DNA of 50,450 bases from Candidatus Sumerlaeales bacterium (lineage in GTDB: Bacteria; Sumerlaeota; Sumerlaeia; Sumerlaeales; Sumerlaeaceae), in assembly GCA_038243585.1 (NCBI GenBank), contig JBBSQY010000021.1:1-50450 (forward strand), in the 5' to 3' direction. Positions within the stretch are counted from its first letter, which is position 1, and the number at the start of each line of letters is the position of its first letter. Made by a program: the position numbers. This document shows positions 39,001 through 42,000 of the stretch, one piece after another.

Positions 39001-42000
39001 AAATTGTTCACGACTTTTTTTATCCACGTGGGGCGATCGCAAAACCGTGTATTTACGGATGCGAGTTGGCAGTGGAATCGGGCCAGCAATGCGGGCACCC
39101 GTGCGTTTAGCTGTGTCCACGATTTCCTGTACGCTGGCGTCCAGCAAACGGAAATCAAACGCATTCAAGTTAATTCTAATTCTCTGTCCGGGCATTTTAT
39201 CGCTTTCGTGGGAAAGGCTGCCGATCCGATAAAGATCGGCAGCTCCCAGTTTCCTCTATTATTCGATAACTTCGCCTACCACGCCGGCGCCGACTGTGCG
39301 GCCACCTTCGCGGATAGCGAATCGCAATTCTTTTTCCATGGCGATAGGGTTGATCAAATCAACCGTAACTTCCAAGCTGTCACCAGGCATTACCATTTCA
39401 ACGCCTTCGGGTAATGTCACAATTCCAGTCACATCCGTCGTGCGGAAGTAGAACTGTGGACGGTATCCTTTGAAGAACGGCGTGTGTCGGCCACCTTCGT
39501 CTTTTGACAACACATAGATTTGAGCTTTAAACTTTTTGTGAGGAGTTATTGAACCGGGCTTTGCGATAACCTGACCACGCTCGATATCAACACGCTCAAC
39601 GCCGCGCAGAAGTAGCCCAACGTTATCGCCAGCTACGCCCTGATCCAGCAATTTACGGAACATTTCAACCCCGGTTACTACCGACTTACGGGTATTTTCC
39701 TGGATGCCAACGATATCAACGTTGTCACCAACGTTAATGATGCCGCGTTCAATACGTCCGGTGGCAACAGTTCCGCGACCAGAAATCGAAAACACGTCTT
39801 CGACAGGCATAAGGAATGGTTTTGCGATATCCCGCTCAGGCTCAGGAATAAACGAGTCAAGCGCTTCCATTAGCTTCGCGATAGCTGGACGACCATACTC
39901 GCCGTCTTCGCCGTTCAGAGCCTGCAACGCGCTACCACGAATAATCGGGGTGTCGTCGCCAGGAAATTCGTACTTGGAAAGTAACTCGCGAACTTCCAGT
40001 TCGACAAGCTCAAGCAACTCAGCATCGTCGACCTGATCGCACTTGTTAAGAAATACCACAATGTGAGGCACGCCAACCTGGCGAGCAAGCAGAATGTGCT
40101 CACGCGTCTGAGGCATTGGCCCGTCAGTAGCGGCAACCACCAGAATTGCGCCGTCCATCTGGGCTGCGCCGGTGATCATGTTTTTAATATAATCGGCGTG
40201 GCCCGGACAGTCTACGTGTGCGTAGTGGCGGTTAGGGCTTTCATACTCAACGTGCGAGGTTGCAATGGTTATACCACGAGCGCGCTCTTCGGGAGCCTTA
40301 TCGATTTGATCAAAGGCAACCATTTTTCCAAGACCGGCCTCTGCCTGGGTCTTAGTTATTGCAGCCGTCAGCGTTGTTTTACCATGATCGATGTGACCGA
40401 TGGTACCTACGTTTACGTGTGGCTTTTTGCGGTCGAATTTCTCTTTGGCCATAGCCCTTTATTTTTGATCCTCCAAAAATGATACAACCCGTTTCATACT
40501 GCTGTACGTCTACCGGCATAGCATCGGCGTTGTCGGCGGCCGGCAATCATATGCCAGACACAACTGATCAACACCAATCCCCTGTCGATATAGACACAGC
40601 CCGCCGCAGTAACGCGAACCGCACCCAAATCTTTAAATCAGGCACAGTTCCATACAACCCTCAGGCCGTAGGCTTACGCCGTAAATACCGCACATCTTAA
40701 TCAAAGGCTTAATCGAGTCGCTCAAGCGGCAGGACGCCGCTGCGAGTTCCCACCGGACCTTGCCCGGCAGCACCGTCCCATAGGGGATGGTGTCGAAGTA
40801 GCCCTCGCCTTCTTTCGTCCCGATATCTCGGGTCTAAGTCGTTACTCAGGTCTCGGTCGAGGGATCCGGGACCCGCCTGCGTTATCTTAACCACAGGTTG
40901 TGGTGTTTTACTATATCCAAATTTTATCAACCGACGTTGACGAAATCGTGATGCACCGGCCATGACTACTTGGCAAACCGCCGAGTATTCAATCTAACAT
41001 TAAAATTTCTTTCAGTTTGCTCCGGTGACAGCAATTAGCAGGAGCCGGGCTGGACTGCCCGGCTCCTGCAATTATTTGTTTTCTGGTGTAATTGTCGCTG
41101 TTTCGCTTGTTTTCTCATCTGTATGTTGTCCTGCCGGATTCTTGCCATACTCAACGGCGGCCTGAGTGTATTTTACAAGGCCTTTTTCTTCAAGGCGCTT
41201 CACCATGTCTTTTCGAACTTCTGCCTGCGCAGCGCCTTTCAGCATAGATTCCAAACGATCCCGAACTACAGCTAGTGGTACTGCTTCTCCAGCATGCCTT
41301 TTTTCTAGATTTGCAATGGCATAATCAGGAGATATGGGAATGGCTTCACTGAGACCTTTATCCGCTTGAATCGCGGACATAGCCTGATCGAATACGCGTG
41401 TTTGGGTGTCAGTTGACTGTCCTACGATATGGCGCGCTACGACTACAACACTGGTATTTTTCGCGCCGGAAGCAAGCAGTCGCGCCGTTACCGAGGTCCA
41501 GTCACTATTGACAAGTTCCGTGTGAATCGCCTCTGCTAGTTTGCGCGCCTGCTCGCGAGCACGCGCCTGCTCAGCAGTTCCAGTAGCCTGCTCGCTTTGA
41601 ATCATAAGCAATGCCCCTTCAGCTTCCGGCTGCCGCAGTTCATCCTTTAATGCATCGTATCGGATCTGGATCGCCTCATAAGTTACGGCAGCTTCAGCTT
41701 CTGCCGTGGCTATAGCATCAATGTTTCTGCGGGCGATTTCCCGGCGGCCCAGCATTTCAAGCTCGTTTTGAATTGCGGCGTTTTCCGTCAGCCCCTTATC
41801 AATTGCGGCGCGAACCATGGCCTCATCTTCCAAAGCCTGTTCCATTAGACCCTTTAACGATTCAGGATCCTGCTTGGAAGACTCCAGATAGCTTGTAAAC
41901 CGCGGGCCAAACATGGACATAAGGTGGCCGACCGTGAATCGTTTCCCATCAAGCTGGAATGCTATGGTTTCAGTGCGTACCTCCGTTACAGTGCCAGTTG

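Follow-up and report, generated by a model that had tools for sequence, protein, structure and literature searches.

A conserved structured RNA motif in the leader of the tuf-S10 operon of Sumerlaeota

The tuf-S10 locus and its leader

We analysed a window of 50,450 nucleotides (the whole stretch of DNA under study, from a Candidatus Sumerlaeales bacterium; contig JBBSQY010000021.1, positions 1 to 50,450), which carries a tuf-S10 operon on its minus strand. We identified tuf, rpsJ, rplC and rplD by NCBIfam. In the run that follows rpsJ, we confirmed L3, L4, L5, S8 and L6; the other genes are inferred from their order and size. On the other side of the leader, an ORF at 41072-42931 gives weak matches to PPIase families, and the GC-rich hairpin just past its stop is probably the terminator that parts this gene from the leader. 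Between the two lies the motif that the genome-wide survey's note had described as a pseudoknot-type RNA ahead of tuf. Read on the minus strand from 40863 to 40795, it runs CCCUC, 46 nt, GAAG-GC-GAGGG-C-UA-CUUC, in agreement with that note, and its 3' end stands 342 nt before the tuf ATG (40452).

A promoter of the type of this family (f1) is predicted upstream of the motif, with transcription starting at about 40953-40958. The promoter element is common to 11 of the 12 family loci, and GAAT[AG]-N16/17-GTA precedes 17 of the 42 tRNA genes of this genome, compared with 0.04% of random 110-nt windows. The motif lies 72-137 nt from the -35 word (sd 14; 43 non-f1 loci) and 77-370 nt from the start codon (sd 73); the element is tied more tightly to the promoter than to the start codon. 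The leader in the window folds far better than its shuffles (z -4.0 and -4.3). Hairpins of different sequence that resemble the two downstream of the motif were seen by eye in other f1 loci, and these hairpins show no phylum-wide sequence conservation. Four public RNA runs cover the stretch only at 40327-40515, mostly with other organisms' tuf, and none covers the motif.

Table 1. Features of the tuf-S10 leader and the adjoining genes
Feature	Position	Strand	Basis or remark
13-bp GC-rich hairpin just past the stop codon of the PPIase-like gene upstream	41038..41069		scored terminator-like, + strand
Predicted promoter TGAATA-N16-GTA, family-f1 type	40967..40991	-	inferred
P2 hairpin CGGGUC-C-CGG / CCG-A-GACCUG, 9-nt loop AUCCCUCGA	40847..40875	-	fold with CCCUC constrained to be unpaired; covariation
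CCCUC in the P2 loop, putative 5' strand of the kissing helix	40859..40863	-	invariant in 63/63 instances, the word itself being part of the search definition
Hairpin CCCGA-GAUA-UCGGG within the variable insert	40819..40832	-	fold
P4 hairpin, GAAG/CUUC stem, loop GC-GAGGG-C-UA	40795..40812	-	GAAG/CUUC 62/63, AAAG/CUUU 1/63
GAGGG (putative 3' strand of the kissing helix) and invariant C	40801..40806	-	GAGGGC 62/63, UGGGGC 1/63
Two hairpins downstream of the motif (40771-40792 and 40750-40770)	40750..40792	-	fold
GGAGG, Shine-Dalgarno-like word before tuf	40470..40474	-	sequence
tuf (EF-Tu, 397 aa), sole copy found in this assembly	39259..40452	-	NCBIfam
tuf-rpsJ spacer with GC-rich inverted repeat	39196..39258	-	by eye in the window
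rpsJ (S10), opening a minus-strand run that reaches ~25870	38884..39195	-	NCBIfam

Distribution and gene context of the motif

Within the family, the pattern matches once in each of 12 of the 13 genomes, always 249-354 nt before tuf, which bears out the survey's counts; the reversed control pattern gave 0 matches. The thirteenth genome (G002, 80% complete) has no motif match and no tuf match either, so that the absence of the motif there is uninformative. Across the phylum, we found the motif in 55 of 75 genomes and 12 of 18 families, one copy per genome in a single gene context and always 77-370 nt before a tuf start, with 0 matches to reversed-pattern controls in the 75 genomes. The motif is more widespread than the survey's note had reported, and its caveat that the motif is "not found in many other families" does not hold. 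We likewise found no Rfam match over the motif in the window, even at E<=10; seven other motif loci gave four matches (E 5-9), all far under gathering scores.

A looser, related pattern returned 104 loci, 29 of them with tuf downstream. The labels of these 29 are Sumerlaeota or a subtaxon (26), BRC1 (1) and 'bacterium' (2), and among the 104 loci there is no tuf-linked match in any other named phylum. The model search covered two other phyla and five single genomes from elsewhere, with close sister phyla left out: model R2 at E<=0.02 matched one genome among the 121 of one phylum and none among the 121 of the other, the single match lying without tuf or rpsJ nearby, and the five genomes gave two weak matches (E 0.2-0.4). 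Viral contigs contained six pattern matches, none with tuf and none with full P2. Weak model matches away from tuf in genomes G021 and G063 were rejected; they sit in coding-looking sequence.

We then compared the motif with the gene order at tuf. Of the 48 genomes in which tuf can be read together with the gene after it, 41 carry the motif with rpsJ next, none carries it without rpsJ, six have neither (one of them, G032, with only 10 nt of upstream sequence) and one has rpsJ but no motif. rpsJ is next at 41 of 41 readable motif loci; at 14 more motif loci the contig breaks off within tuf or behind it. Eleven genomes carry the motif and have two tuf starts, and in all 11 the motif stands at one copy only, the other being a tRNA-Thr-tuf arrangement or a lone tuf with a short leader. 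In family f7, where rpsJ is under its own promoter, the motif is absent before rpsJ (4/4 genomes); it is also absent from G020, which has the tuf-rpsJ arrangement, and from G013, G014, G015, G021 and G024, in which the only tuf found is not followed by rpsJ. The motif tracks the S10-heading tuf copy and not tuf in general. Hence, of the proposal that it is a cis-regulator of EF-Tu and the S10 operon, the link to the S10-heading copy stood and that to EF-Tu as such is weakened. The spacer between tuf and rpsJ contains a strong hairpin in the 27 other loci listed, many with a U-rich tail. An EF-Tu tree does not resolve the deep branching of the phylum, nor with it the order of gain and loss of the motif; kin are not independent, and the tuf-rpsJ association may therefore amount to one origin and a few losses.

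Fold of the motif and candidate switches

We established that CCCUC belongs to the loop of a hairpin, P2, whose stem covaries. Its arms pair at 5.7 of 6 positions in their own sequence, compared with 4.5 when swapped within the family and 4.2 when swapped with another family; two-sided changes are seen in 67 cells, against 27 in shuffles, and 9 of 9 held-out genomes beyond the first set keep at least 5 of the 6 pairs. Non-Watson-Crick cells in P2 are G-U in 20 cases versus A-C in 7, an excess that favours sense-strand RNA. The P2 hairpin was missed in the earlier note. In the second hairpin, P4, a double change occurs once, and the pair just outside the stem varies (G-C 29, C-G 6, U-G 3, unpaired 25 in 63 instances). 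The reported lack of covariation must accordingly be revised: covariation is strong in the P2 stem round CCCUC and weak in the GAAG/CUUC stem. The secondary structure expected of a ribosomal protein leader at candidate level (PMC7247131) is backed by covariation in P2, and the place before a ribosomal protein operon is consistent, though the first gene is tuf.

Across the phylum, the P2 loop holding CCCUC measures 8-11 nt and the P4 loop presenting GAGGG-C 9-10 nt, and the insert that separates the two hairpins varies from 37 to 139 nt (63 instances). P4 seldom forms in the nested ensemble (mean 0.06). CCCUC and GAGGG would pair in a 5-bp loop-loop kissing helix, which we infer because the 63 instances contain 0 compensatory changes. 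The proposed pairing of these two words is thereby retained as probable geometry, and the simple H-type topology is replaced by a two-hairpin loop-loop kissing pseudoknot, since CCCUC lies within the loop of the covarying P2 hairpin. A comparison of shared k-mers revealed no other leader words conserved across families beyond shuffles. The letters of the loops and of P4 are invariant and the flanks share nothing, which fits recognition rather than pairing alone. Taken together, the data support a structured RNA, conserved and confined to this lineage, at the start of the tuf-S10 transcript.

No conserved intrinsic terminator was found: 7 of 53 leaders have terminator-like sites, against 4 of 159 shuffles; the sites are scattered, and the window has none. 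No conserved anti-Shine-Dalgarno switch was found either, the pairing probability of CCCUC with the Shine-Dalgarno word having a mean of 0.03 and exceeding 0.5 in 2 of 53 leaders. A downstream anti-GAGGG strand, a hypothesis framed after the data were seen, is likewise not conserved across the phylum; it reached a mean z of -0.5 with 15 of 53 at p<=0.1 in a first test, and 42 of 55 versus 35.4 expected with 0 of 8 held-out at p<=0.1 in a stricter helix test. In families f8 and f13, a downstream strand is complementary to GAAG-N-GAGGG; we keep this lineage-level signal as a lead. No alternative fold common to the whole phylum was found, and a sequence-free search for an altered kissing pair in the G020 and f7 leaders gave matches no better than shuffles and none shared.

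Other identities were also tried. For an rRNA mimic, we compared the motif with the 16S and 23S rRNA of genomes G012 and G069; neither at sequence level nor with the model was there a match. A G058 stretch taken for 23S proved to be something other than rRNA and was set aside. In 23S domain I, CCCUC and GAGGG stand about 45 nt from each other; we take them to belong to other helices there, and for that reason regard the pair as coincidence. Housekeeping RNAs (RNase P, SRP, 6S, tmRNA) were rejected, full-score copies of each being present elsewhere in the genome, and there were no tRNA calls over the motif. A leader peptide or small ORF was rejected as well: each of the three frames is closed by stops in 50 of 63 instances, and insert lengths are spread over all frames. 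An 84-aa ORF at 40709-40963 has no NCBIfam match. The boxA word occurs in 0 of 63 leaders.

Possible functions and comparison with known systems

The motif looks like an undescribed control element of the protein-making machinery. We favour, tentatively and as a candidate that falls somewhat short of probable, a leader that binds a protein and so gives feedback control of the tuf-S10 operon; our prior for the protein is uL4. Structured leaders ahead of ribosomal protein operons are usually feedback sites for ribosomal proteins (PMC7247131; PMC3616713), and control of the S10-spc operon is established only in some Gammaproteobacteria, other leaders being candidates without a ligand (PMC3616713; PMC7247131). 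The kiss between the loops would stabilise the otherwise weak P4 and bring together about 20 invariant nucleotides on a single compact surface; an operon product in excess over rRNA, possibly uL4 by analogy with the E. coli S10 operon, would bind that surface, and expression of the operon would drop. The effect would rather be co-transcriptional, through a pause and then Rho-dependent release or a refolded long downstream leader, than a covering of the tuf ribosome-binding site. Counted for a feedback leader were the position of the motif, the P2 covariation, the invariant loops, the promoter tie and the presence of Rho (found in 5/5 genomes tested). Counted against it were the lack of kiss covariation, of a sequence mimic in the rRNA of the two genomes searched and of a conserved expression platform, tuf as first gene and, further, f7 rpsJ and G020 tuf-rpsJ without the motif, and the non-independence of kin.

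It is also conceivable, if distinctly less likely, that the kissing module is a new class of cis-acting RNA, which has the transcription complex as its target, or itself detects EF-Tu or a growth-rate nucleotide, and sets the ratio of EF-Tu to ribosomal proteins via read-through from tuf into S10-spc. Antitermination has precedents in the cis-acting antiterminator RNAs HK022 put and the eps EAR element: here polymerase would be modified, or a Nus-type factor recruited, so as to pass the tuf-rpsJ hairpin and finish the operon. That the element follows the promoter and not the start codon, is present where tuf and rpsJ share one run and absent both where tuf stands alone and where rpsJ has a promoter to itself, speaks for such a processivity element, as do the strong, often U-tailed spacer hairpin in the loci listed and the lack of a conserved expression platform, no switch being needed. 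We nevertheless consider it unlikely, because boxA is lacking in the leaders and G020 has both tuf-rpsJ and the spacer hairpin without the motif. A constitutive structural element (5' end compaction, nuclease protection, a processing site or a stable leader RNA, in each case independent of a regulated ligand) agrees with the place near the 5' end, the lack of a conserved expression platform and the strong folding of the window leader; a pure kiss should however tolerate compensatory changes phylum-wide, as P2 does and the loops and P4 stem do not, which makes this reading quite improbable.

Feedback by free EF-Tu, which would bind the module and lower expression of its own transcript, is a candidate to which we give little credence. 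tuf is always the first gene, and Salmonella controls just one of its two tuf paralogues, tufB; however, the five genomes in which the only tuf found lacks rpsJ next have no motif, and nothing tRNA-like was called over it. As little credence goes to a candidate riboswitch aptamer for a growth-rate small molecule such as (p)ppGpp or GTP. A conserved aptamer-like core does stand at the 5' end of the leader, its invariant nucleotides being such as the kissing pseudoknot would bring together, P4 is so rare in the nested ensemble that it could be ligand-stabilised, and the complementary strand in f8 and f13 would suit a switch, against which stand the single gene context and copy per genome, the lack of a phylum-wide switch and the lack of an Rfam riboswitch match. 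Least of all do we expect the motif to act at the DNA level, as two inverted words bound by protein, or to be conserved by chance: in DNA, too, CCCTC/GAGGG and GAAG/CTTC form inverted repeats, and the leader lies outside the RNA coverage, but the P2 covariation with its G-U over A-C bias, the variable P2-P4 spacing and the empty reversed-pattern controls all argue against it.

The motif is a compact, phylum-wide RNA with a defined fold and a short list of candidate ligands, and second tuf copies, family f7 and G020 provide natural negative controls, which makes it testable in vitro without culturing the hosts. If it is a true ribosomal protein leader, it would be an independent solution, built as a kissing loop and set in front of tuf. 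Should it control read-through, or respond to EF-Tu or to a nucleotide, it would be a new means of balancing EF-Tu against ribosomes. It can also serve as a marker of the phylum and of the S10-linked tuf copy.

Among known systems, HK022 put and eps EAR are likewise promoter-proximal two-hairpin or pseudoknot RNAs before a long operon, and the L5-L13 pairing of cobalamin riboswitches is likewise a loop-loop kiss. The motif has no Rfam match to any of these three at E<=10 and another gene context, and its paired GAGGG is not the ribosome-binding site. S10-Clostridia and RLC-47-1 resemble it as candidate S10-operon leaders from comparative genomics without known ligand, each in one lineage. The S10-Clostridia and Firmicutes S10 leaders stand directly before rpsJ, whereas here tuf lies between leader and rpsJ; none of the 63 Sumerlaeota leaders contains the S10-Clostridia words UGCGAUGA and GGAG-N-AUGUC, and the Rfam scans of the window and the seven other motif loci gave no match to these families.

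A pseudoknot or loop-loop leader fold is shared with the uS15 operator of rpsO, the uS4 alpha operator and the bL20 site, where it is stabilised by the ribosomal protein (PMC8470358; PMC10931766); for uS15, a kissing-loop form is proposed there for one mycobacterial leader (PMC8470358). In these systems the fold lies over or next to the translation start and includes a determinant that resembles rRNA (PMC8470358; PMC10931766), whereas the motif lies 77-370 nt upstream, heads another operon and has no rRNA mimic that we could find. From the gammaproteobacterial uL4/S10 leader, the motif differs by tuf as first gene and by its two-hairpin kissing core. It shows no likeness to that leader in sequence, and it lacks both a conserved U-tract attenuator and a helix across the start codon. 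What it has in common with that leader of E. coli and other Gammaproteobacteria is a long structured leader before the S10 operon, in which variable hairpins surround a small, conserved, loop-centred core (PMC3616713; PMC10931766).

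A conserved element in the leader of the tuf-S10 operon

The exact pattern occurs once per genome in 12 of the 13 genomes of family f1, 249-354 nt 5' of tuf, just as the genome-wide survey's note had claimed, and a reversed control pattern gave 0 matches; the thirteenth genome, without the motif, is also without a tuf match. In the window, 342 nt separate the 3' end of the motif from the tuf ATG, and the genes that follow encode EF-Tu, S10, L3 and L4 and, farther along, L5, S8 and L6. The reported lack of an Rfam counterpart was borne out: at E<=10 nothing matches over the motif in the window, and seven other motif loci yielded only 4 matches, all sub-threshold (E 5-9). 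A weak match elsewhere in the window, to the S6-S18-Chlorobi leader, is antisense within an ORF and is taken as chance.

Features in and around the tuf leader of the window
Feature	Position	Strand	Details
Predicted f1-type promoter element	40967-40991	-	TGAATA-N16-GTA
Predicted transcription start	near 40955	-	leader of about 500 nt
Motif	40863-40795	-	CCCUC, 46 nt, GAAG-GC-GAGGG-C-UA-CUUC
Distal-leader words	about 40620-40680	-	GGCGTAAGCC and GGAACTG
tuf/S10 operon	to about 25870	-	run of genes
S6-S18-Chlorobi leader match	43205-43285	+	22 bits, E 1.2, below gathering score

EF-Tu was matched at full strength in 56 of the 75 phylum genomes. The 52 tuf upstream regions read first comprised the 12 family loci and 40 of the 44 others (of the remaining four, three have no 5' end and the fourth was added afterwards); 44 of the 52 carry the full motif, a spacer of 1-2 nt and an insert of up to about 200 nt being allowed. 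Broken tuf starts, located with the first 45 EF-Tu residues, and three further loci added 11 genomes, bringing the total to 55 of 75 genomes and 12 of 18 families, so that the motif is not, as had been stated, absent from many families. Among the 20 genomes without it, nine have no assembled tuf start (G002, G016, G038, G043, G044, G049, G054, G071, G073), two have a separate rpsJ and no tuf that we could find (G022, G023), and in the other nine a tuf start was located, but the motif is absent from the sequence before it or that sequence is too short (G013, G014, G015, G020, G021, G024, G030, G032, G074). A covariance model matched 51 of the 75 at E<=0.5, a count that contains one off-target match and misses some long-insert forms. 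One assembly, G065, holds two near-identical motif-tuf contigs (L037, L072), which probably represent two strains or the same contig in duplicate.

Searching one genome per prokaryote species with inserts of 37-67 nt returned 104 loci. Of the 29 with tuf downstream, 26 bear the label Sumerlaeota or a taxon within it, one BRC1 and two 'bacterium'; among the other loci, the 55 that have 700-nt flanks all lack tuf, and the last 24, with flanks of about 300 nt only, include four Sumerlaeota-labelled loci without tuf in that span. In metagenomes, tuf lies downstream of 10 of 46 matches. In each of two other phyla the motif model was run on 121 genomes; it matched one in the first, not near tuf, and none in the second. 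Thus, as far as these species-wide, metagenome and two-phylum searches reach, the element is confined to Sumerlaeota, the phylum name being taken from the record labels and the survey's note.

Hairpins P2 and P4 and their loops

CCCUC lies within the 8-11 nt loop of hairpin P2 in all 44 first-set instances, which had been selected in part for having an enclosing stem. At the six loop-proximal positions, a mean of 5.7 are paired in the hairpin's own sequence, versus 4.5 and 4.2 after 3' arms were swapped within and between families. The model-fitted alignment, which is biased towards the structure, has 67 cells changed on both sides versus 27 in shuffles, with double-sided changes in all 7 pairs. 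At least 5 of the 6 pairs form in 9/9 genomes outside the first set and in 10/10 tuf-linked metagenome matches (six of these have 6); 6 pairs occur in 0/42 other matches. Hence the P2 stem, part of a hairpin that the note does not describe, covaries; the note's statement on missing covariation concerned its own two core helices. When the register was set on Watson-Crick pairs alone, the leftover cells were G-U (20), A-C (7) and other (13), an imbalance that favours RNA of the sense strand.

We compared 63 instances, from 55 genomes and 8 metagenome contigs, after removing two that repeat a genome instance. The P4 stem is GAAG/CUUC in 62 and AAAG/CUUU in one, and the next pair is G-C (29), C-G (6), U-G (3) or unpaired (25). 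The P2 loop word CCCUC is present in all 63 and the P4 loop word GAGGGC in 62; the remaining UGGGGC keeps four pairs of the putative kissing helix, one as U-G, and no compensatory change in that helix was seen in the 63. Since two invariant complementary loops thus sit on two independently supported stems, they would be expected to kiss; of the pseudoknot originally proposed, the pairing of CCCUC with GAGGG is retained in this form, and CCCUC as a free strand is given up. In nested folding of whole leaders P4 alone seldom forms (mean 0.06) and CCCUC is mostly unpaired, as expected if P4 depends on the kiss or on a partner. The insert spans 37-139 nt and carries lineage-specific hairpins, and no other leader word common to families was found. 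By eye, G011 and genus g1 share the two distal words, and most f1 loci have an AAG(T)4-5-like word in the distal leader; other families do not share them.

Promoters and operon arrangement

A -35 word, TTGAC, lies 72-137 nt 5' of CCCUC in 43/43 non-f1 loci (background, 111/719 stretches of 170 nt), and in most of them TAnnnT follows after 16-18 nt. Family f1 has TGAATA-N16/17-GTA instead, in 11/12 loci. In G000, the genome of the window, GAAT[AG]-N16/17-GTA precedes 17/42 tRNA genes and TTGAC..TAnnnT 0/42, and over the whole genome the former is rarer with a spacing of 16 or 17 (54 and 47 occurrences) than with any other (93-122). Because of the tRNA-gene positions and of depletion at exactly these spacings, we take it as a promoter, and f1 seems to use it as a non-canonical housekeeping promoter. 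The distance of the motif from the promoter (the -35 word of the 43 non-f1 loci) varies much less, with an sd of 14 nt, than its distance from the tuf start, with 73 nt. The f1 element also precedes tmRNA and ORFs whose N-terminal sequences resemble rpsF, clpX, trxA and lepA. RpoD regions 2.4 and 4.2 of f1 are identical to those in families using TTGAC..TAnnnT. In f1, f13 and f15 there is also a second sigma-70-like gene, divergent and altered in region 4.2 (L262-L265; G012, G048, G058, G000).

Among 48 genomes with readable neighbours, 41 have the motif with rpsJ next, none the motif without rpsJ, six neither and one (G020) rpsJ without the motif, counts that are not independent trials because the genomes are kin and the deep forks of the EF-Tu tree were left open. 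Only one copy has the motif in 11/11 motif-carrying genomes with two tuf starts, the other being of tRNA-Thr-tuf or short-leader type; G074 has two tRNA-type copies and the motif in neither. Contigs break inside tuf in such genomes, and the motif copy would be the rpsJ-linked one. Before rpsJ the motif is absent where fusA directly precedes it (G013, G014, G015, G074) and in the four f7 genomes, where rpsJ has its own promoter. In the fusA-then-rpsJ layout (L054, L056, L064, L066) tuf occurs only in the tRNA-Thr position; the f7 rpsJ leaders (L057-L060) are structured, about 300 nt or more long, and share no motif by eye. In all 27 loci examined for it, the tuf-rpsJ spacer has a strong hairpin, which frequently ends in a U-rich tail; in f4 (L023, L024; G017, G018) the spacer also holds an inserted 114-aa ORF without an assigned function. 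In neither of the two single-contig genomes examined (G012, G069; L197, L198, L202, L203) is the 16S rRNA gene linked to the 23S gene.

Candidate functions and known leaders

The element is a real, phylum-wide RNA. From what is directly supported, namely its position, P2 and the invariance of the loops and P4, we infer the kiss, the binding of a partner and regulation. About 20 nucleotides are invariant while the adjoining P2 stem varies freely, which points to recognition by a partner; as the element heads the S10-spc operon, an r-protein of that operon is the prior candidate, with uL4 first by analogy with the E. coli S10 operon (PMC3616713). Such a protein may feed back on its operon early in transcription, a reading that we favour tentatively, at a little short of an even chance.

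Tests for an output came out negative: terminator-like sites occur in 7/53 leaders and not in the window, pairing of CCCUC with the Shine-Dalgarno sequence averages only 0.03 in folded whole leaders, and 42/55 leaders, versus 35.4 expected, have a downstream strand that could pair with GAGGG (held-out, 0/8 at p<=0.1), the signal being clear in f8 and f13. These results, the presence of Rho in 5/5 genomes tested and the failure to find a sequence mimic of the motif in the 16S and 23S rRNA of G012 and G069 set our weighting. The negative output tests fit control of read-through, which nevertheless appears doubtful; a role in stability is unlikely, and EF-Tu feedback and a riboswitch are each slightly less probable still. 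Taken jointly, read-through control or direct sensing of EF-Tu or a nucleotide is possible, though less likely than not. An explanation not involving RNA runs against the excess of G-U over A-C in P2 and deserves very little credence. Set beside these, protein feedback early in transcription stays our preferred reading. The strand complementary to GAAG-N-GAGGG lies 37-60 nt after P4 in f8 (L015, L020, L180, L182, L184) and about 100-120 nt after it in f13 (L038, L039, L048). In G028 (U-A) and G029 (C-G) it matches the spacer base too, and it may act as a lineage-specific switch.

RNase P, SRP, 6S, tmRNA and tRNA were each ruled out for the motif, as was a small ORF across it. HK022 put, EAR, cobalamin kissing loops and Salmonella tufB serve as comparison systems. 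The Firmicutes/Clostridia S10 leader was ruled out, its conserved words (alignment in PMC7247131) occurring in 0/63 leaders. So was the gammaproteobacterial uL4 leader, which has an attenuator, whereas here none was found and tuf comes first. The comparison drew on PMC7247131, PMC3616713, PMC10931766, PMC1913097, PMC11109978 (30 ribosomal-leader candidates), PMC5737381, PMC8470358 and PMC8092238; searches of a literature that did not extend to subscription papers or to the supplements of PMC11109978 and PMC5737381 found no description of the element, which is apparently new to print. For candidate r-leaders, PMC7247131 names covariation and a consistent position before r-protein operons, and both are found here. 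The element would work most like an r-leader, with candidates for its ligand and output, and may be classed with a kind already known, the structured leader of an r-protein operon.
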